The notes: a model not told the origin generated them from the letters alone. Shown: positions 41,400 through 50,138, counted from the first letter of the stretch. The stretch: DNA of 64,000 bases from Myxococcota bacterium (GCA_039208735.1 JBCCQY010000014.1:26916-90915), one strand, 5' to 3'. Translations and numbers: made by a program.

Positions 41400-43658
41400 A
41401 TGCCGCCGACGGATGAGACCGAGATGACCGATGCGACCGCGCTGCCCACGATGATGGCGCCGGTTGTGAGTGCGCCGAGACGACTCGGCATGTTTGCTGG
41501 GGTCTTCACGCCGACCTTCCTCTCGATCGTAGGGGTTCTGCTCTATTTGCGAGTCGGGTGGGTCGTCGGGAATGCGGGCCTTGGCGAGACGCTCATCATG
41601 CTCGCTGTCGCGGCCATGATCGCCATCTGCACTGGCTGGTCGTACGCAACATTGGCGAGCAACACACGGGTCAACGACGGCGACACCTTCGCGGTGCTCA
41701 ACCAGGGACTGGGCTTTGAAGTCGCGGGCACCCTGGGCATCCCGCTCGCCCTGTCGCGTCCGTTGCTCATCGCCATGCACATCTTCGGGTTTCGAGCTGG
41801 GCTCATCTACCTCGAAGGCTCGCTCCAAGAGTTCGCGCTCTATGTCGATATCGGCATTTTCGTCCTGTTCTTCATTCTCGCCTACCGGCTGCGGCGCCTT
41901 CCCTCAGCGCTTCAGTACGGACTGCTGGCGCTGATCGTGGCTTCGGTGGTCTCGATCGTCTACGGCCAAGTGCCCGAGGATGCTGCGCCGTATGAGCTGA
42001 ACTGGTGGGGCAGCTACCCACCGTCTTCGCTCTCCGCGGACCAGAGCCTGACGTTTTGGCCGGTGTTTGCCATCCTGTTTCCTGCTTTGACAGGGTTTCT
42101 AGCCGAAACCCCGACCTCGGGGGGGCTCAAGGAGCCCCGTCGGGACATTCCCAATGGGACGATGCTGGCGATTGTGATGGCCGCATTGGTGTACGGGGGC
42201 GTAGCGGTATGGTGTGCCACCACGGGGACCATCGAGGTGCTGGTGTCGGACCCGCTCCACGTCATCCATCAGGCCTGGTCTCCGCCGCTCGTCGCCGCCG
42301 GACTGCTCGGTGCGACGGCAACCTCGGCCCTGGCGGGCCTCACCTCCGCTCCGCGCATTCTTCAAGGCCTGGGCAACGACCGCATCGTGCCATTCTCCGA
42401 TGCCTTGTCGGAGACGATCGATGGCAAGCCTCGCAACGCCTTGCTCGTCACCGCCATCGCCACCTTCTTGTGCTTGTTGCTTCGCGATCTAAACGTGGTG
42501 GCGAGCATGGCGACGCTGTTCATCCTCGTGGCGTACGCGGCATTGAACGCGGCGGTCATTGTCGAACAGGGGCTTTCACTGATCAGCTTTCGCCCCACCT
42601 TCAATCCACCGAGGCTCGCGCCCTTCATTGGGTTGTCGGGATCGCTCGCCGCGCTCGTGCTGATCAGCCCGCTGTTCGGCATGGCATCCGTCATCGGAAT
42701 GTTCGGCACCTTGCTCATCGTGCGGCGCCGAGGCCAGCCCCACGGCGCCGTCCCACGGAGCACGTTGTTCCTCGGCATCGCGGAGTGGGCCGCGTCAAAG
42801 GTGACGGGGGACGATGCCTCCAATCCGAAGGCTTGGCGACCGAATTTCGTGGTTCCGGTGGTCGATGCGGAACACCTTCGCGATTCCTTCCGGTTGCTCA
42901 TGGAGCTCGCGCGACCCGAAGGTTCCATCCGCTTCATGGGCATCGCCACTCAGCAGCCCATCGAGAACCTGGGGCGGCGGCTCGGGCGGTTGTCGACCTC
43001 GATGAAGGAGCGGAGCGTCCGCGCCACGTGGTCCACCATCGACATGGATGATTTCGAGCGGGCCGTTCACGTCGGAACACTGGCCTTCCAGGGTGCGTTC
43101 TTGCGGCCCAACGTGATGTTCCTCCGACTCGGTCAGGAGCGCGCCCGCCGGCGGGAAGCCCAGCAAGCGCTCCAGGTGGCGACCCAGCTGCGCCTTGGGG
43201 TGGCGTTGTATTTGCCTCATCCTGATCAGCGCTCGGCCGACGATGAGGAAGAGCGATCGATCCGCCTGTGGATTCGGCGAGGCCCCCGCGGATGGGACCC
43301 CCACAGCGCCTTCAACGACACCAACCTCGATTTGCCGTTGCTTCTCGCGATGCGGCTCCAGCGGCTGTGGAACGGGCCCCTCGAACTCGCGACCTTTGCG
43401 CGGTCAGAGGCCGATCAGGTGGAGGCCGCGGCCTTCCTCGAATCGGTTCGCGACATGGCTCGATTGCCTCGAGGTACCGAGATTCAGGTGTTCGAAGGGC
43501 AAGAGTCCGAAGGCTTGACCGCGGCACCGACCGTCGATCTCACCATTGTGGGGTTCAAGGCCAAGCCCGAGTTGCAGTGGGCCGAGTCCACGATGTGGAC
43601 CGCCCGGGGGTCCTGCCTCTTCGTGCTCGACTCGGGCCGGGAAACGGCCCTCGCTTAA
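41400..43658 (+). CDS. Cation-chloride cotransporter (SLC12/CCC, APC superfamily) homologue
   Basis: GVFTPTFLSIVGVLLYLRVGWVVGNAG, FPALTG, LKEPRRDIPNGT, APRILQ, FRPTF, WRPN, cytoplasmic C-terminal domain (LRPN, SCLFVLDSG). Confidence 0.85.
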   Translation: MPPTDETEMTDATALPTMMAPVVSAPRRLGMFAGVFTPTFLSIVGVLLYLRVGWVVGNAGLGETLIMLAVAAMIAICTGWSYATLASNTRVNDGDTFAVLNQGLGFEVAGTLGIPLALSRPLLIAMHIFGFRAGLIYLEGSLQEFALYVDIGIFVLFFILAYRLRRLPSALQYGLLALIVASVVSIVYGQVPEDAAPYELNWWGSYPPSSLSADQSLTFWPVFAILFPALTGFLAETPTSGGLKEPRRDIPNGTMLAIVMAALVYGGVAVWCATTGTIEVLVSDPLHVIHQAWSPPLVAAGLLGATATSALAGLTSAPRILQGLGNDRIVPFSDALSETIDGKPRNALLVTAIATFLCLLLRDLNVVASMATLFILVAYAALNAAVIVEQGLSLISFRPTFNPPRLAPFIGLSGSLAALVLISPLFGMASVIGMFGTLLIVRRRGQPHGAVPRSTLFLGIAEWAASKVTGDDASNPKAWRPNFVVPVVDAEHLRDSFRLLMELARPEGSIRFMGIATQQPIENLGRRLGRLSTSMKERSVRATWSTIDMDDFERAVHVGTLAFQGAFLRPNVMFLRLGQERARRREAQQALQVATQLRLGVALYLPHPDQRSADDEEERSIRLWIRRGPRGWDPHSAFNDTNLDLPLLLAMRLQRLWNGPLELATFARSEADQVEAAAFLESVRDMARLPRGTEIQVFEGQESEGLTAAPTVDLTIVGFKAKPELQWAESTMWTARGSCLFVLDSGRETALA

Positions 43659-45142
43659 GTGCGTACGCCGAGCATGCGGAGCAGATCCGTCATGATGGCC
43701 AGGGCGAGGCTTGCCAAGGCCTCGGGCACCCCCTGGTGGGCTTGAAGCTGCCGCACGCGTCTCGCCAGCCGTTCCAACAGGTCGACTTGCTTGCTGGGAT
43801 CCAGCGTTTCCGCGGCCCGTCGGACCACGGACGGCGCTTCGAACAGGCTGCGCAGCAACAAGCGGGTGTGTCCGTCCTCCTGGCCCGTCCAACCGGGCAT
43901 CGTGGCTTCCTGGAGGTGGCGCACGGTCCGCAATACGGCGTGGCTTGAACCAAACGACTCGAGATCGAGGTGCGTGGTAGGAAACTGCCGCATCTGGCCC
44001 GGTTGGCCCTCGAGCAAGCCCAGCCGAGGAACCGCCCAGATCCAGTCGAGGGACCAAGGAGGGTGCGGGTCGACGTTTAAGGCAGCGGCGATGCGAGAAA
44101 ACAGCACATTGGCGGTAGGCCACTCCCGGGAAACCACCATCGACATTCGGCGTGGCGTAATCAACGGTGCGACCGGCACGGATTGCAGCAGCTGTCCGCG
44201 TTCCATCCATCGCCACCGCTGGGCGATGGCGTCATGGTTGGCGAAGTGGTCGCGCTCCTTCAGCGTTCGCACACAGATGCTGCATTTGGCGCCCAGCCGC
44301 ACCAGCTTGTGCCGGGTCAATGCCAGCTCCCGCCCAAGATAGAGGCTCGACCCATCACTGCGCCGAAGCAGGGCTGGCGTGCGTCCCGCGTCCCGAGCAA
44401 GCACGAGCCCGTCGTCGATGACCACATCGTCGCGTGAGAGTCCCTCGTCGACCACCACGTGAACCCCATCCTCGAGTTCACTCCGCCGCATTCGCTCGCT
44501 GACGTCGAGGCCAATGCCCTCGTAGAACGCATCGAGGGTGACGACCGCTTCCTCGACGCGTGCTTCATGGGCCGTGACCGCCTCGGGGTCGAGGCGCCAT
44601 CCCACCGTCGGGTGAGGCTCGGGCGGCGACTCTCGAGGGTCCCAGCGATGTTCGCGAGGTCCGCTGTCGTCGATGAGGACGAAGGTGCGAACGTCATGTC
44701 CGAGCGCGGTCAGGGTGTTTGCGATTGCATGGGCGACGAACACCCGTCTGAGCTCAGGAGCCCGACGCAGGGGCCCCGGAGCCTCCACTCGGTCCACATC
44801 GACGACAATCGATTCAGGGCGCTCGGCGCGGGGCCAGTACCGACCCGCTTCATGCGCCTGGAAGAGTCGCCGCACCGCCTCTGTTTGGTCGGTCCACAGA
44901 TGAACGATGCCCGCGTTGGCTTGAACCCGAGCGATGAGCCCGTCCGGAGACACCTGGGCGGCGAGGGCTCTTGCGACGGGTTCGGAACGGCGACCCGCTG
45001 CGTTCGCCCATCGTCGGCAGTCGACGACCACATCCCCTTCGGTGGGGGCTTTGCTGATCGCGATATCGCGCGGGTATTCGAGGCCCGGCATGGCCTCTTC
45101 GATCCAGGGTCCGAGGCGTTCAAGGACGTGTTCGATCAACAC
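43655..45142 (-). CDS. Arginyl-tRNA synthetase-like protein with degenerate HIGH/KMSKS motifs, probable pseudo-synthetase
   Basis: Intact 495-aa frame with ArgRS N-domain, Rossmann core (IVVD...LGHDV...DDSG; LLRRSDGSSLYLGRELA; HF) and DALR-like tail (PSVVRRAAETLDP; LRMLGV). Confidence 0.8.
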   Translation of the reverse strand: MLIEHVLERLGPWIEEAMPGLEYPRDIAISKAPTEGDVVVDCRRWANAAGRRSEPVARALAAQVSPDGLIARVQANAGIVHLWTDQTEAVRRLFQAHEAGRYWPRAERPESIVVDVDRVEAPGPLRRAPELRRVFVAHAIANTLTALGHDVRTFVLIDDSGPREHRWDPRESPPEPHPTVGWRLDPEAVTAHEARVEEAVVTLDAFYEGIGLDVSERMRRSELEDGVHVVVDEGLSRDDVVIDDGLVLARDAGRTPALLRRSDGSSLYLGRELALTRHKLVRLGAKCSICVRTLKERDHFANHDAIAQRWRWMERGQLLQSVPVAPLITPRRMSMVVSREWPTANVLFSRIAAALNVDPHPPWSLDWIWAVPRLGLLEGQPGQMRQFPTTHLDLESFGSSHAVLRTVRHLQEATMPGWTGQEDGHTRLLLRSLFEAPSVVRRAAETLDPSKQVDLLERLARRVRQLQAHQGVPEALASLALAIMTDLLRMLGVRT

Positions 45143-45158
45143 CGAGCAAGCCCCGTGC

Positions 45159-45794
45159 TTACTCGCACCAGTCGGCGACCGTATAGGCCGTGGCCCGCCG
45201 AGCCATGCGATGGCCACTCCACGCGTGCGGATCGGCGACCGACTCGAGAAGGGCGCGTTGCGGGGTAGCCAGCTCTGCACGCACTTCTCGGCCGTCTGGG
45301 CACTCCACATCGAACTTCACCGACGTGAGCGAGCGACTCCCAAACCGCACACTCCACTCGGGGCAGCTCGTCGGATGGTCCGCATCGAGGGGCGCCACCC
45401 AGGCCACCATGCAGGGGGGCTCCACGCACTGAACATCGATGATCTCATGAGGCAGGTCGCACTCATCGAGGATGTCCTCAATGGTTGGACCGAAGCCATA
45501 CTCGGAAAACTCGTCAGGCACGCGCTCGGCCCACTCGCCCGCCGCGGGGTTGCCCTTGAGAAGGGGCTTCAGCCCTGGTGGAATGTCGGCTTCCGGGGCT
45601 TGGTTGGGGACGTCGCTAGGGGTCGGCCGAGGCGCTGCCGCGGGAGCCTCCGGAGCCGTTGGAGACGCCACAACGGAAGAAGGGGCGGGCTTGACCGGTG
45701 GCGGGGCGGGCGCGTTGGTGCGAGTCGCGAGATAAGCGCCGCCGACCAAAACAAGCAAGGCGACTCCCAGCCCTGCCATCAGTCGCAGTTGCAT
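45159..45794 (-). CDS. Hypothetical membrane-anchored protein with a Pro/Ala linker and Cys-rich domain
   Basis: N-terminal TM segment, PAPPPVKPAP linker, six Cys including CVEPPC. Confidence 0.65.
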   Translation of the reverse strand: MQLRLMAGLGVALLVLVGGAYLATRTNAPAPPPVKPAPSSVVASPTAPEAPAAAPRPTPSDVPNQAPEADIPPGLKPLLKGNPAAGEWAERVPDEFSEYGFGPTIEDILDECDLPHEIIDVQCVEPPCMVAWVAPLDADHPTSCPEWSVRFGSRSLTSVKFDVECPDGREVRAELATPQRALLESVADPHAWSGHRMARRATAYTVADWCE

Positions 45795-46177
45795 GCATGC
45801 TCCGTGTCGAGATCGATGGCGGTAACCAGGCGGGTCTCGGTTTCACAAGCCGCGAAGACCATCCGCGCATTTTGACCGTCGCGCGTCACGCCCTCGACCG
45901 CGTGAGAGGGGCAGCGCCCGTCGAGGCGCGTCCGCTCGGGGACCCATCGTCCTTCCTCAAGGAGCTGCCGAACTTCGACTTGGTCGAACTTGCGGCACCG
46001 CATTCGACATCGACCGTGGTGGGTGAAGCGAAGGGGTCGAGTCCGCCACGCCTCGTCGGCATCTGCGGCCTTGGGTTCCGGACGCCGGAGTTGTGCGGGG
46101 TCGAGCAACGGAGCCTGAGGCGGTGCCGCAGGGGGAACCTCGGGTTGCAGCGCACACGAAAGCCAGAACCACACCAC
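45779..46177 (-). CDS. DUF4258-like domain lipoprotein
   Basis: VVWFWLSC after GGAGG; FTHHGRCRMRCRKFDQVEVRQLLEEG; RMVFA...LVTAID. Confidence 0.65.
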   Translation of the reverse strand: MVWFWLSCALQPEVPPAAPPQAPLLDPAQLRRPEPKAADADEAWRTRPLRFTHHGRCRMRCRKFDQVEVRQLLEEGRWVPERTRLDGRCPSHAVEGVTRDGQNARMVFAACETETRLVTAIDLDTEHACNCD

Positions 46178-46213
46178 AGGGCCTCCCGCCGGGCGCACCC
46201 GGCAGGGGCGTCC

Positions 46214-47167
46214 TTATCGCGATGAGCCGGTGAATGGGCACGCTTCGGGGTCACCGGCGGAAGCGATGCGGGGGTCGGTTCCGCCTTGCCAAATGCCTGT
46301 GCCATCGGCGGACCAACAAGACCCAAAGGCGAGGCGCTCCCCGGCAATGTCGATCTCACCGCCCGCAAATCCTCCTTCGGCGGTATGGATCGTGCCCAGC
46401 TGGCCCGGCCACGTGAAGTCATCCGTGGTCACCGCAAAGCGGCCGTTGAACGCGAACTGGTCGGGTCCTTCGAGAAACCAGTAGCCATCGAACGTGGGCG
46501 CGGTCCCATAGCGAGCCTCGACCCGTCGACCGACCTCGGGATCTTGGACCACGCTGAACTCGAGCGTCTGCAACCGTCCCTCAATGGCGAGGTCCAGCAC
46601 ATCAACCACTCCGTCGAGTTCCCACCGCCAGGCCGATCCATCGGCATCCGAACGGCTGGTCCCAATCGTCTGGAACGGACCGGCCTCGGTTTCGGCGACG
46701 TCGATGCGCACCTCGAAAATGTCCTCGCCAAGCTGCACCACGTCCGCCTGCACCCACATCGTTTCGAGCCGCTGCCCCCCCGACGGGCCCTCCGCGACGG
46801 GTACGGTCAGGGCGGTGGGGGTCCAGGTTCGCCGCTGTGCCGTCCGTCGGTTCGCGCCGACCTCGCGAAGCTGGGCACAGATTTCGACCGGGAAGGAGAG
46901 GAAGTCAGCGTAGGCCGAGACCGAGCCTAGCGTGGTGGCCAGCAGGGGCGCAGTCGCATCGGTGGGCACCACCGCACCGAGCGCAGCTGGAGGAACCACG
47001 TCTTCCCGCGCAAGGAGCGCTTCGAGAAATCGAGGTTCTTCCATGAAGGGTGCGTTCGTGATGGGCGCTCCACAACCGGCCAGGCCCCCGATCAGCAGCC
47101 AGCGAAGCTTGCGCGAAATCAGAACCGGTAGCCTAAGGTCAACAAGGTGTCGGAGAACGCGGGCCAT
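46214..47167 (-). CDS. Hypothetical lipoprotein downstream of the caspase gene
   Basis: RKLRWLLIGGLAGC lipobox; beta-rich body; CW...C near the end. Start is uncertain; the nearest in-frame ATG (47167) overlaps the caspase gene. Confidence 0.65.
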   Translation of the reverse strand: MARVLRHLVDLRLPVLISRKLRWLLIGGLAGCGAPITNAPFMEEPRFLEALLAREDVVPPAALGAVVPTDATAPLLATTLGSVSAYADFLSFPVEICAQLREVGANRRTAQRRTWTPTALTVPVAEGPSGGQRLETMWVQADVVQLGEDIFEVRIDVAETEAGPFQTIGTSRSDADGSAWRWELDGVVDVLDLAIEGRLQTLEFSVVQDPEVGRRVEARYGTAPTFDGYWFLEGPDQFAFNGRFAVTTDDFTWPGQLGTIHTAEGGFAGGEIDIAGERLAFGSCWSADGTGIWQGGTDPRIASAGDPEACPFTGSSR

Positions 47168-48684
47168 CCTTCGTTGTCCTCCCAACTCGTGACCATCAGG
47201 TTGATGTTGAATTGCAAATCGCCGACGAAGCGTCCGTGGTGAATCCCCACCCAGGTGTTGACGCCCATCCCGAGCCCGAGCGCGGTTTGTCGGTCTACCC
47301 CGAACTCGGGGAACTCCCTTGAAAGCCATACGATTCCCCCTTGCGCCCCGATGCCGGCGCGAACCAGGCGTGGACGTGTGGCGTAGCCAACCACCCCCAG
47401 TGCGGTCGTCGACGTTTGCAACGCTTCCACGGCCGGCAGCCCGTCAAACTCCCAATTCGTGGTCGCTCTGCCCGAAAGTACATCGAATCCCCAATAAGAG
47501 CGGTTCCGAGAAAGAAATCGCGCCTGTAGCCCACCGACTAAGTGGGGTGCGAAGTACTGAGAGGCGTAGTTGACGTTGCCGAAGCCTCGACCGCCAATGA
47601 TGAAACGGAGCGACAGGTCGGGAATCCGCGACCGTCGAACTTGCCGATCGATGTCGCCCCGCGACGCGGCATCTTCGTAGGACACAACGGTGAAGTCCTC
47701 GGCGATGACCGTTCGGGTCTCCCCCCTTCGGACCTCGACCTGGGCCTCCTCGACGTAGCCGGGCATCCGTTTGTGGACGAAGAAGCTGCCCGGGGTGACC
47801 GCGAGGGTGAGGGGCTGGGTCCCGTCGACCTCCGCCACGTACCGCCGACGCGACTCGTCCCAGACGCTGAAGGCCCCTTCCAGATCCCCGAGGAAGGCGA
47901 TTCGCGCGGTCGCCGCTTCGAGCCGGGTGAGCACCACATCACCCGCCCCCGACAGGTCGAAGTCGCCATGAGGGGTTTGCGTCTCGGGGGCATCTCGGGT
48001 CCGAAACGCCGTTTCTGCGTAGACGTAGGCATAGGTCTCGGCCAGGCTGACGAGGCCGTCACGATCGAGATCCGCTCCTCCCGAGAGCGCAGTGTGGAGG
48101 TAGTGGGTGAAAAACCCTCCCCCGATCTCTGAGGACTCTTGAGATAGCTCACTCGCTGCGCTGCTCGTGAGAATCGCGGTCCCTTGCATGGATTCAGCCG
48201 TGGGTGTCGCAAAGGCCATCGGAGGCCCCCGACGCCCTCCTTTTCGCCGAACCAGTGCCCCAGATTGACAGGCGTCAACCATGACAATGCGAATCTGGGC
48301 GCCGGTTTGTTCGATGCGGTCTCGCAACAGGTCGTACGAGAGTTTGGTGGTGCCCAAATGCAGCGATTCATTATCGCCGTGGCCCGAGTAGTAGACCACG
48401 AACGTCACGCGGTCCCCATCACTGGTCCGTTCGAGGGCTTTGATGGTGAGGCGCTCGAGTTCGGCGAGGAGGCCCCGGGTGGTCGCACCCTTGACGATCA
48501 CGGCATGCCGTGGCTCCATCCCGCCAAAACGGACGAAGAGGTCGCGCATCTTCTGGGCGTCGGTCTCCGCAAAGACGAGCGGCTGATCCCCTGTGGATCC
48601 GTGGTTGTTTCCCACGAACAGCCCGAATCGCACGTCGGCGGCCGATGCGAAGGCCGTCCAAAGGAGGAGCCAAACGGGGATCAT
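47119..48684 (-). CDS. Exported caspase-family (peptidase C14) protease with a PEGA-like middle domain and probable C-terminal outer-membrane beta-barrel
   Basis: Signal peptide ending ASA; VGNNHG, LVFAETDA, YYSGHG (His), VDACQSG (Cys), GGFFTHYL, GADLDRDG, QTP; amphipathic strands ending LTLGYRF. Confidence 0.88.
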   Translation of the reverse strand: MIPVWLLLWTAFASAADVRFGLFVGNNHGSTGDQPLVFAETDAQKMRDLFVRFGGMEPRHAVIVKGATTRGLLAELERLTIKALERTSDGDRVTFVVYYSGHGDNESLHLGTTKLSYDLLRDRIEQTGAQIRIVMVDACQSGALVRRKGGRRGPPMAFATPTAESMQGTAILTSSAASELSQESSEIGGGFFTHYLHTALSGGADLDRDGLVSLAETYAYVYAETAFRTRDAPETQTPHGDFDLSGAGDVVLTRLEAATARIAFLGDLEGAFSVWDESRRRYVAEVDGTQPLTLAVTPGSFFVHKRMPGYVEEAQVEVRRGETRTVIAEDFTVVSYEDAASRGDIDRQVRRSRIPDLSLRFIIGGRGFGNVNYASQYFAPHLVGGLQARFLSRNRSYWGFDVLSGRATTNWEFDGLPAVEALQTSTTALGVVGYATRPRLVRAGIGAQGGIVWLSREFPEFGVDRQTALGLGMGVNTWVGIHHGRFVGDLQFNINLMVTSWEDNEGWPAFSDTLLTLGYRF

Positions 48685-49511
48685 CGGCGCTTCACTTCGG
48701 CGGTCGCCACCCCATCAACCGCATCGAGACGACGAAGGCCCGCATGGCCTTGATTCCAGTACGTTTGTCGCACCAGCGCCTTGGCTTCGTCGGCCGGGCG
48801 ATCGAAGACGGCGACGAAGACTTCAGGCCCGGGTGCCCCGTCCAGCATCACGGTACCGGGCAGCTCAACGACCTCCAGGGCCTCGAGCGGTTCGGGGGCA
48901 ACGCCCTCGATGGGGAAGAACACCGAGATCATGCCCGTGCCGTCCACCGAAAGGAGCACTACGCCCGAGTGGTCGCTCCGAACGACCCGAAACCCAAGGA
49001 CGTCGCCTGCACCTACGGGAGTGGCGGGATCGTAGGGGTGCAGTTCGCCACCTTGGGCAACGAACAACTGAAGCGCTTCGCCACCCCGAATCGCATAGGC
49101 CGCATCGGTCGAGGCCTCGCGGTTCGTGAAGATGCCAAACACGCCGATAAGCACCGCGGCTGCGAGCAACAACCCGGAGACCACCCCGGGAAACACCCGT
49201 GGGCGTCGACGGCTAGCCAGGTTCACCACGGGTTCTGGGGGTTCGCCACGCGCAGAGTCATCGACCTCTGGGTCGATGAGGGCATCATCGTAAATCGGCG
49301 TCGGAGATTCGTCGGGCAACGCGGCGGCTCGTGCCCGCAGGGCCGCGATGTCGAGGGCGGGCAGCTCTGCTTTCGCCTTTGGGATCGCCTCGAGATGCGC
49401 ACGGCTGCGGTCGTCGAGGGCCGCTTCCACCTTTGCAGCTTCCTCGGGGGAGAGTTCACCGGTCATATACCGGTCGAGAACCAGCTTCGAGAGGTGATGG
49501 GGTTCGTTCAT
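48681..49511 (-). CDS. Membrane-bound anti-sigma factor: Zn-ligand-free ZAS-like N-terminus, TM segment, DUF4384-like extracytoplasmic domain
   Basis: HLSKLVLDRYMTGELSPEEAAKVEAAL; TM segment GVVSGLLLAAAVLIGVFGIF; GDVLGFRV, VLLSVDGTG.ISVFFP, LPGTVMLDGAPGPEVFVAVF; ATGA overlaps on both sides. Confidence 0.8.
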   Translation of the reverse strand: MNEPHHLSKLVLDRYMTGELSPEEAAKVEAALDDRSRAHLEAIPKAKAELPALDIAALRARAAALPDESPTPIYDDALIDPEVDDSARGEPPEPVVNLASRRRPRVFPGVVSGLLLAAAVLIGVFGIFTNREASTDAAYAIRGGEALQLFVAQGGELHPYDPATPVGAGDVLGFRVVRSDHSGVVLLSVDGTGMISVFFPIEGVAPEPLEALEVVELPGTVMLDGAPGPEVFVAVFDRPADEAKALVRQTYWNQGHAGLRRLDAVDGVATAEVKRR

Positions 49512-50020
49512 CTCGCGACTCCGGCAATGACGCCCAACCGTTGGCGGGCACGGACCAGAAAGTTGTGGATGCGCTTACGCACCGTTGGAACGGATAGGCC
49601 GACCAACGCCGCCGTTTCTTCCCGCGTGCACTCGTCGAAGTACGTATGGACCACGCAGGCGCGGGTCTGTGCATCGGCCTCATCAAGCAAGTCTAGGATT
49701 CGGCCAAGATCTTCATGGTCCTCAACCTCTCGACTCAACGCTGCGGGAACCACTTGGTCGCTATGCTGGTCGAGCTTCTGCTGACGCGACGAACGGTTGC
49801 GCAGCTGGTTGAGGCTGTAGTTCGTGGAGATCTTGTACATCCAGGTGAGGGGGCTCGCTTGTTGGCGGAAGGTCTCGGCGTGCTTGATGACCCGCGCGAA
49901 CGTCTCCTGCACCGCATCCCGAGCCGCCTCATCATCGCGTAGAATCGAGCGACAACGATGATAAAGGACGGCGGCATAGCGGTCGTAGAGTTCGGCGATC
50001 TCGGCGTCGGTCAATTCCAT
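49508..50020 (-). CDS. ECF RNA polymerase sigma factor
   Basis: Region 2 ARDAVQETF...TWMYKISTNYSLN; region 4 ETAALVGLSVPTVRKR; 170 aa. Confidence 0.93.
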   Translation of the reverse strand: MELTDAEIAELYDRYAAVLYHRCRSILRDDEAARDAVQETFARVIKHAETFRQQASPLTWMYKISTNYSLNQLRNRSSRQQKLDQHSDQVVPAALSREVEDHEDLGRILDLLDEADAQTRACVVHTYFDECTREETAALVGLSVPTVRKRIHNFLVRARQRLGVIAGVAR

Positions 50021-50138
50021 GAACGGGACTCGTCGGATAGACCCGCCAAGCGGGCGGAAGGAAAACGAAAACACGGCGCGGGCGATTGGTACCACCGTAG
50101 TCGCTCCGGTCGAGCCTCTGGTCGCGGCGAGGACGTGC

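Follow-up and report, generated by a model that had tools for sequence, protein, structure and literature searches.

Caspase homologs have been found beside sigma factors before. Four of the five metacaspases of Myxococcus xanthus DK 1622 are encoded in operons with a sigma-70 factor, and the accessible part of that survey lists further operons of this kind in Anaeromyxobacter, Haliangium, Sorangium, Ralstonia and Fibrobacter (Asplund-Samuelsson et al. 2012, PMC3501461). Here, we analyzed a stretch of 64,000 nucleotides from a Myxococcota bacterium (GCA_039208735.1 JBCCQY010000014.1:26916-90915), referred to below as the window, in which positions 46,214 to 50,020 encode a sigma factor of the extracytoplasmic function (ECF) type, a predicted anti-sigma factor, an exported caspase-like protease of family C14 and a predicted lipoprotein. 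The cassette is real, widespread and uncharacterized. As its mechanism we favor, with reasonable though far from full confidence, a trans-envelope switch in which a barrel-anchored, Arg/Lys-specific protease would process itself, leave its outer-membrane barrel and make the site-1 cut in the anti-sigma factor, thereby freeing the ECF sigma factor.

The cassette is not wholly new, as both the operon association and the control of sigma factors by caspase-like proteases are already in print. A preliminary description of this locus knew of no characterized example, which has to be corrected in view of the gene association in PMC3501461 and the characterized or proposed precedents for caspase-like sigma control in PMC10028731 and PMC11506125. 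Judged from their published description, the operons of PMC3501461 very likely belong to the same cassette family. The accessible text of that survey reports the association and discusses cell death, and it contains no anti-sigma factor, barrel, cleavage motif, promoter or mechanism.

Several described systems resemble the cassette in part, as far as the accessible portions of the reports go. DdvS-DdvA of M. xanthus also combines a myxobacterial ECF sigma factor with a single-pass anti-sigma factor, and for the site-1 cut, which falls on the periplasmic side in the linker beside the membrane helix, a caspase-fold His/Cys module has been proposed (PMC11506125). However, the protease of DdvA is a TPR-CHAT domain contained in the anti-sigma factor, it works in trans inside a dimer, and its output is CBASS (cyclic-oligonucleotide-based antiphage signaling system)/CRISPR, whereas the C14 enzyme of the cassette is encoded separately and sits on a predicted outer-membrane barrel, and the predicted output is lipoproteins. 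With an anti-sigma ectodomain that is an Ig-like domain of roughly 130 residues, and with the protease in a separate gene, the cassette does not belong to the DdvA/DdvS type. In the type III-E Csx29-Csx30-CASP-sigma system, a caspase-like protease cuts the inhibitor of an ECF-like sigma factor (PMC10028731); some Csx30 C-terminal domains are DUF4384-like, and target motifs lie inside the locus, with autoregulation (PMC10028731; bioRxiv 10.1101/2022.08.17.504292). In contrast, Csx29 is described there as a cytoplasmic, RNA-triggered and CRISPR-linked CHAT protease that cuts after Met427, with no membrane helix, barrel or export. The SAVED-CHAT/PCaspase/PCc-sigma system of Haliangium ochraceum likewise encodes a cleavage-activated myxobacterial C14 protease with a sigma factor (bioRxiv 10.1101/2023.06.23.546230). 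PCaspase differs in being activated by a second protease and cyclic triadenylate (cA3), in cutting the sigma factor itself and many other proteins, and in serving abortive infection, and the accessible part of the same report mentions no export signal or barrel. Its signal peptide and barrel place our protease outside this CRISPR-associated protease-sigma class (Csx29/Csx30, PCaspase), and the flanks of the cassette are methyltransferase, DUF4258 and ArgRS-like genes in profile scans that included no dedicated PADLOC defence scan.

DegS is an inner-membrane HtrA protease, whereas the site-1 enzyme here would be a clan CD cysteine protease that comes from the outer membrane and is dedicated to its cassette. 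The likeness to DegS-RseA-RseP lies in the site-1 cut, the site-2 cut by RseP, sigma release and autoregulation, as summarized in the accessible text of PMC10028731 and PMC11506125. By its DUF4384 anti-sigma description only, the cassette also resembles ECF25, a group with DUF4384 anti-sigma factors (PMC7826278 supplement); the searched text of that supplement has no caspase or peptidase C14, and a mention could be missed there. CHAT proteins adjoin ECF54 according to the accessible part of PMC8999054. The full-text literature, with most subscription papers outside the search, contained no description of a barrel-anchored caspase, of the motifs reported below or of the mechanism. It likewise gave no confirmation of a link to the M. 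xanthus act operon or of a self-cleavage residue in MaOC1, and our argument uses neither. Overall, the cassette works like regulated intramembrane proteolysis, yet it lies outside the DegS, DdvA and CRISPR-protease systems.

Gene order, folds and conserved motifs

The features on which the argument relies are given below; pLDDT is the predicted local distance difference test of the AlphaFold models.

50036..50067 (-): predicted promoter for the cassette's own sigma factor, 15 nt 5' of the sigma ATG (motif conservation)
49508..50020 (-): ECF sigma factor, 170 aa, regions 2 and 4 only (PF04542, PF08281 and TIGR02937 above cut-off)
48681..49511 (-): predicted single-pass anti-sigma factor, 276 aa (AlphaFold model, hydropathy, Ig-like fold matches)
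49128..49196 (-): anti-sigma membrane helix (Kyte-Doolittle peak 2.63; helix 111-125 in the model)
49083..49088 (-): anti-sigma R142-G143, candidate site-1 cleavage site (conserved column in a low-confidence linker)
47119..48684 (-): exported C14 protease, 521 aa (PF00656, AlphaFold model, fold matches)
48379..48381 (-): catalytic His102, YYSGHG (frame translation; His in 168/168 relatives)
48268..48270 (-): catalytic Cys139, DACQSG (frame translation; Cys in 168/168 relatives)
48238..48249 (-): protease R146-x-K148-G149, candidate self-processing site in the loop after the catalytic Cys (conservation, low pLDDT)
47656..47661 (-): protease R342-G343 in the sandwich-to-barrel tether, candidate release site or autoinhibitory pseudo-substrate (conservation)
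47122..47619 (-): predicted 8-stranded outer-membrane barrel ending Y-R-F (AlphaFold strands, OmpA-type fold matches)
46214..47122 (-): predicted lipoprotein, about 302 aa, with no assigned family and a non-canonical start (lipobox LAGC; frame end at 46214)

The preliminary description had joined the sigma, anti-sigma and caspase genes by consecutive 4-bp ATGA overlaps, and both the sigma/anti-sigma and the anti-sigma/protease junctions are indeed of this form. The overlap is more than chance, because it recurs at most junctions of relatives (129 of 166 between anti-sigma factor and caspase, 113 of 152 between sigma and anti-sigma factor). A protease profile search over 301 genomes of the phylum (E ≤1e-30, four candidates per genome scored) matched in at least 116 of them. 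For comparison, 130 of the roughly 240 phylum matches were taken as loci, together with 79 metagenome, three genome-contig and nine own-genome loci. Among 184 caspase loci with at least 1300 bp upstream, which were not de-duplicated, the order sigma-anti-caspase occurs in 176, caspase-sigma-anti in two and anti-caspase in one, so the neighborhood is conserved as had been expected. The motif statistics below refer to 168 protease/anti-sigma pairs of less than 90% identity, all of which retain the catalytic dyad. A profile derived from the anti-sigma factors of the cassettes has 4,650 matching proteins among 50%-identity representatives (E ≤1e-30), which indicates how far the family may extend.

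The sigma factor scores 81.7 bits against TIGR02937 (cut-off 42.9) and is of the ECF class, being short, composed of regions 2 and 4 only, and accompanied by a neighboring anti-sigma factor and an upstream promoter of its own. The protease matches PF00656 with 45.6 bits (cut-off 21.4). Its AlphaFold model, built with 114 homologs, has a mean pLDDT of 91.9 and a predicted template modeling score (pTM) of 0.84, and is divided into a caspase domain (17-254), a beta-sandwich (258-335), a helix (340-353) and a barrel (356-521). The N-terminal part resembles metacaspases, MALT1 and caspases (metacaspase 4: Z 21.1, root mean square deviation (rmsd) 3.0, 207 residues aligned), which together with H102 and C139 makes the enzyme a clan CD peptidase of family C14; the His and Cys codons are exactly where the preliminary description had put them. 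The C-terminal part resembles OmpA, Ail, NspA, OmpW and OprF (NspA: Z 17.5, rmsd 2.7, 151 aligned). Its strands, at 356-520, are connected by long loops after the odd strands and short turns after the even ones; eight strands, short periplasmic turns, long outer loops and an aromatic terminus are those of an OmpA/NspA-type barrel, and the terminal F521 is present in at least 90% of 114 close homologs. The signal peptide and the barrel ending TLGYRF that had been proposed earlier thus agree with the hydrophobic N-terminus ending A-S-A (signal peptide 1-16, judged by eye) and with the model.

OmpA-type barrels have both termini on the periplasmic side; therefore, the protease domain would be periplasmic, a placement that follows the model topology and accords with the earlier claim of an exported, not cytoplasmic, enzyme. 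A classical autotransporter (type Va) passes its N-terminal domain to the surface through a 12-stranded barrel. We rejected such a surface-exposed autotransporter because the model has eight strands and matches OmpA-family barrels.

True caspases owe their cleavage after Asp to a basic S1 pocket. The predicted S1 positions here are acidic and invariant across the 168 pairs (D or E at the position of D42, D at 137, E at 183), and a true Asp-specific caspase was rejected on this sequence alignment alone. The profile search returned metacaspases 1, 4 and 9 and GSU0716. Among solved structures, plant and fungal metacaspases are the closest relatives, and their N-D and D-x-C aspartates are matched in the alignment by D42 and D137, which gives the protease the acidic S1 residues of metacaspases and orthocaspases. 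Plant and fungal metacaspases cleave after Arg or Lys according to the accessible part of PMC8283722. From the acidic D42, D137 and E183 and this homology, we predict that the protease is Arg/Lys-specific.

In its model, the anti-sigma factor has a cytoplasmic bundle of four helices (9-64, high pLDDT), a membrane helix at about 106-128, a flexible linker (pLDDT below 50 at residues 134-143) and a DUF4384-like Ig domain (147-273). The Ig domain dominates the fold matches, the best of which is generic Ig-like (Z 7.8) and allows no functional assignment. The protein itself has no match to DUF4384 (PF14326), which 47 of 120 aligned relatives match. Zinc-binding anti-sigma (ZAS) factors are defined by an HxxxCxxC motif. 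The zf-HC2 match of this protein is below cut-off and the His/Cys ligands are absent, which takes it out of the ZAS class; the motif is present in 44 of 168 relatives. The top match of the anti-sigma profile, P0121, has 758 aa with five matched stretches and is possibly a repeated or fused form.

Three sites in the two proteins combine a basic residue with a following Gly. In the anti-sigma factor, the column after the membrane helix is K in 130 and R in 32 of the 168 pairs, the next is G in 141, and R stands two positions before the basic column in 115. In the protease, R-x-K-G is found seven to ten residues after the catalytic Cys (R in 153, K in 161 or R in 6, G in 162 of 168), in a loop (141-160) where pLDDT falls to 55-73. 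At the tether, K or R occupies all 153 aligned rows (15 gaps) and G 152 of them, and the pair is kept even in clades with seemingly unrelated C-terminal domains. Of the 149 pairs in which each of the three sites is aligned, 148 are basic at every one, and among about 335 protease columns within the first 350 positions, none besides loop and tether combines at least 80% basic residues with a following Gly. Counts made free of alignment agree: 91 of 157 anti-sigma factors have RxK[GSA] no more than 34 residues from the helix (shuffle mean 3.6) and 138 have [KR]G there (65 in shuffles), 11 proteins with no clear helix having been dropped, and the tether [KR]G occurs in 161 of 163 proteases (shuffle mean 74, maximum 95). 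As controls, the loop basic-Gly was found in one of 14 readable non-cassette caspases of this genome, and 23 non-cassette proteins among 30 DUF4384 loci lacked helix plus motif at this position, as judged by eye. One non-cassette DUF4384 protein has KG nearer its domain. The loop after the catalytic Cys is a processing region in caspases and type II metacaspases.

The lipoprotein has no Pfam or NCBIfam match, and its look-alikes in the Atlas fall only in unnamed Myxococcota clusters. Between the caspase stop and the lipobox Cys codon (47072-47074) there is no ATG, GTG or TTG, which leaves CTG at 47122, overlapping the caspase stop as C-TGA, or ATT at 47119 as candidate starts. Most relatives have ATG one base on, and several (L001, L029, L036, L041 and L042) offer no start but a CTG or TTG that overlaps the stop of the caspase gene, a pattern suggestive of re-initiation from a weak codon by coupling. 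A near-identical contig, not an independent one, covers the whole stretch with a single differing base at 49466, and therefore shows nothing at the start of the lipoprotein gene that would point to a misassembly; the difference (T>G on the plus strand) changes Met16 of the anti-sigma factor to Leu. No RNA data set was among the sequencing runs listed as containing the stretch. Only 58 of 132 proteins encoded downstream of the caspase belong to this lipoprotein family, and a lipobox regular expression is positive in 79 of the 150 loci with enough downstream sequence. The lipoprotein is therefore a clade-specific partner, and its earlier inclusion in the system holds for part of the loci but not as a universal component.

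Predicted promoter and regulon

A TTTC-N-CGGGTC motif (-35 TTTC, extended -10 CGGGTC) lies upstream of the sigma gene in all 31 ortholog loci (33 before two duplicates were removed; the matrix was iterated on the same loci). With a matrix built without the window site, the window copy is the top site of the genome, at 23.7 bits against 18.4 for the next. With the strict pattern, 26 of 49 family genomes had matches, 49 in total, and reversed-pattern controls had none. The relaxed pattern occurs in all 13 family genomes with a full-length ortholog (50 sites, 2 control matches) and in none of the five where a full-length ortholog was not found (3 control matches). When 47 strict sites were inspected, 26 preceded a lipoprotein-type N-terminus within 0-57 nt (by eye), nine lay before the sigma gene of the cassette, one before a cassette caspase, and 11 were other or unclear; the remaining two strict sites are sigma promoters according to the ortholog-locus matrix. 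In this genome, about 6% of candidate starts pass the lipobox regular expression. From these motifs, we predict that the sigma factor transcribes its own operon and a set of lipoprotein genes.

The predicted target genes recur as families across genomes. Of 25 targets scanned with Pfam, 16 have no match; those above cut-off are a beta-lactamase-family serine hydrolase, S15- and S9-peptidase-like proteins, a GH5 hydrolase, a CotH kinase, a Ser/Thr kinase and a TonB receptor, and a cytochrome c and a sulfatase lie below it. For two target families, the closest own-genome homologs carry the motif (14.4 bits on contig C70 and 15.2 bits on contig C24; background 1/600 at ≥12 bits), and 19 other homologs are listed with no motif. 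The window's lipoprotein family does not match the predicted regulon proteins, and the matrix scores were all negative upstream of six paralogous sigma genes, several of whose starts are uncertain.

Some single sites deserve mention. High-scoring sites of this genome precede lipoprotein-type genes at C65:26785(-), C164:13054(+) and C124:18330(-). Its only strict match (L294, G000:C80:24948-24976) is at the 5' end of a TonB-dependent receptor gene and may be intragenic. In another genome, a possible internal promoter is given by a strict match where the anti-sigma gene ends, 48 nt ahead of the start of the cassette caspase (L304, G321:C418:579-606).

A candidate switch and its alternatives

The candidate site in the anti-sigma factor is close to the inner membrane, at a median of 15.5 residues from the membrane helix (156 of 164 with a clear helix), and the spacer of the protease is one beta-sandwich. 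Therefore, a protease fixed to the outer membrane would probably be unable to reach it across the peptidoglycan. Combined with the conserved basic-Gly of the tether, this reach problem suggests that the protease is released before the anti-sigma factor is cut. The preliminary description had proposed a barrel-anchored caspase that acts as the site-1 protease. The barrel, the periplasmic topology, the synteny and a matching candidate site all bear this out in part, while action from a fixed anchor does not fit the distance of the site from the inner membrane or the candidate release site in the tether.

In the switch that we favor, a cue at the barrel or at the partner lipoprotein would trigger self-cleavage of the protease at the K148-G149 and R342-G343 bonds. 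The freed protease domain would cross the periplasm and cut the anti-sigma factor at R142-G143, removing the Ig domain, and an RseP-type protease would then cut the truncated anti-sigma factor within the membrane, by analogy with RseA and DdvA. The released sigma factor would bind TTTC-N-CGGGTC promoters, with positive feedback and lipoprotein output as predicted from the DNA motifs. The genome contains an RseP-like M50 protease gene with a split domain and thus has, with the predicted single-pass anti-sigma factor, both the inhibitor and the site-2 protease type expected for regulated intramembrane proteolysis. In M. xanthus, RseP has been shown to cleave an anti-sigma factor that was deprived of its periplasmic domain, according to the accessible part of PMC11506125. 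A broader proposal, for which we would put the chance somewhat below even, is that the caspase domain is a periplasm-crossing messenger, held as a zymogen on the barrel, self-cleaved at a basic-Gly site upon a surface cue and then activating a dedicated sigma factor through a cut at the same motif in its anti-sigma factor. Myxobacteria would operate many channels of this kind side by side, this genome having eight, and every channel would have a barrel and a lipoprotein partner of its own, the present one serving surface lipoproteins and hydrolases. If true, the switch would mean that a large family of bacterial caspase homologs has a defined role outside cell death, in signaling, and it would constitute a new route from the outer to the inner membrane, by a released protease. 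With three named bonds (K148-G149, R342-G343 and R142-G143), a promoter and candidate targets, the question is directly testable.

Several observations weigh against the switch. R342 is at the start of an ordered helix (block pLDDT about 89) and not in a floppy loop, and the basic-Gly motifs might serve for docking or autoinhibition and never undergo cleavage. The Arg seven residues after the Cys is also present in the non-cassette caspases L008, L009 and L015. The caspase loop changed from K to R at two separate places in the tree, each time with R in the anti-sigma factor, but this co-change rests on two events only; the caspase has K and the anti-sigma factor R in 25 of 168 pairs, the window included, and R at the tether is paired with K in the anti-sigma factor in 61. 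We rejected P1 covariation as proof of substrate pairing, being weak for these reasons. Only 75 of 155 complete paralogous caspases end in F, W or Y, so barrel type and anchoring vary; five of the 184 caspase loci have no sigma or anti-sigma gene nearby, and kin among the compared loci are not independent. The regulon is drawn from motifs, with lipoprotein calls made by eye, and the lipoprotein enrichment in this genome is weak (two of seven high-scoring starts by regular expression, p about 0.06). A complex prediction of protease residues 16-345 with anti-sigma residues 130-276 (120-row alignments each) returned a score of 0.01 and a mark of 0.32, which is no evidence either way. In L015 (G000:C5:13264-13680), R-x-R-G stands at the same spacing after the catalytic Cys.

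The order of R342 in the model, together with a confident domain arrangement (pTM 0.84), would also suit contact with no release, an explanation that we regard as unlikely. Here, the tether Arg and the loop Lys would be autoinhibitory pseudo-substrates in the protease's own S1 pocket, a barrel signal would pull them out, and the anchored enzyme would cut or bind the anti-sigma factor where the membranes are close. In plant metacaspase 4, a basic residue of the linker blocks the active site. However, the anti-sigma site is a median of 15.5 residues from the inner-membrane helix, the model has only the sandwich and one helix as spacer, and the Gly that invariably follows the basic residue at each of the three sites would fit a P1' position.

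The three motifs would be explained equally well if the cuts were maturation and not a trigger, a view to which we give a rather low probability. The anti-sigma factor and the protease would be cut constitutively after export, the pieces would stay associated, and the real signal would act later on the DUF4384-like domain or the lipoprotein, as with self-cleaving anti-sigma factors. Constitutive periplasmic cleavage with associated products is known for other anti-sigma factors in the accessible text of PMC11506125. Against this, the model places the site on the N-terminal side of the folded Ig domain, within a disordered linker, and thus offers no evident means of keeping the anti-sigma pieces together, and each paralogous cassette keeps a cognate protease with its own divergent barrel, which suggests separate sensors.

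Slightly less probable still is that the protease is an output of the sigma factor, processing regulon lipoproteins or envelope or prey proteins, with the anti-sigma motif inhibiting or docking it and not being cut for sigma release: the operon is predicted to be autoregulated, other predicted targets are exported proteins with some hydrolases among them, a promoter-like site directly precedes one cassette caspase (in genome G321), and in Haliangium the co-encoded inhibitor PCi restrains PCaspase (bioRxiv 10.1101/2023.06.23.546230, accessible part), but the motif lies between membrane helix and periplasmic domain, the position for a site-1 protease (PMC11506125, accessible part), and throughout the phylum sigma factor, anti-sigma factor and protease keep their translational coupling, in contrast to the lipoprotein partners, which vary.

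Paralogous cassettes and flanking genes

A DNA/RNA methyltransferase gene (PF01555, 50019-51290, plus strand) diverges from the sigma promoter, and a homolog is near the cassette in 21 of 33 ortholog loci, possibly by linkage only. Downstream of the lipoprotein gene on the minus strand, a DUF4258 gene (45779-46198) is followed by a gene for a membrane-anchored protein (45159-45794), and neither was found beside the lipoprotein gene in 32 ortholog loci. At 43655-45310, also on the minus strand, there is a degenerate arginine-tRNA-ligase-like frame, with NCBIfam and DALR matches far below cut-off.

The genome has 25 PF00656 matches, ten of them of the cassette family and eight in sigma-anti-caspase order, and its cassettes differ in their C-terminal domains and downstream genes. 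The other cassettes in this order are on contigs C30, C20, C77, C55, C50, C4 and C39. Contigs C1 and C243 have the order caspase-sigma-anti, C243 being cut by the contig start, and C235 carries a caspase at the contig end. The protease frame on C77 is about 770 aa long with extra sequence before the barrel, and on C50 a separate barrel-like gene stands behind the cassette protease. In locus L107, the caspase gene is followed in tandem by what looks like another exported member of the same caspase family. On the tree, the proteases of L001 and L002 cluster tightly with that of this genome.

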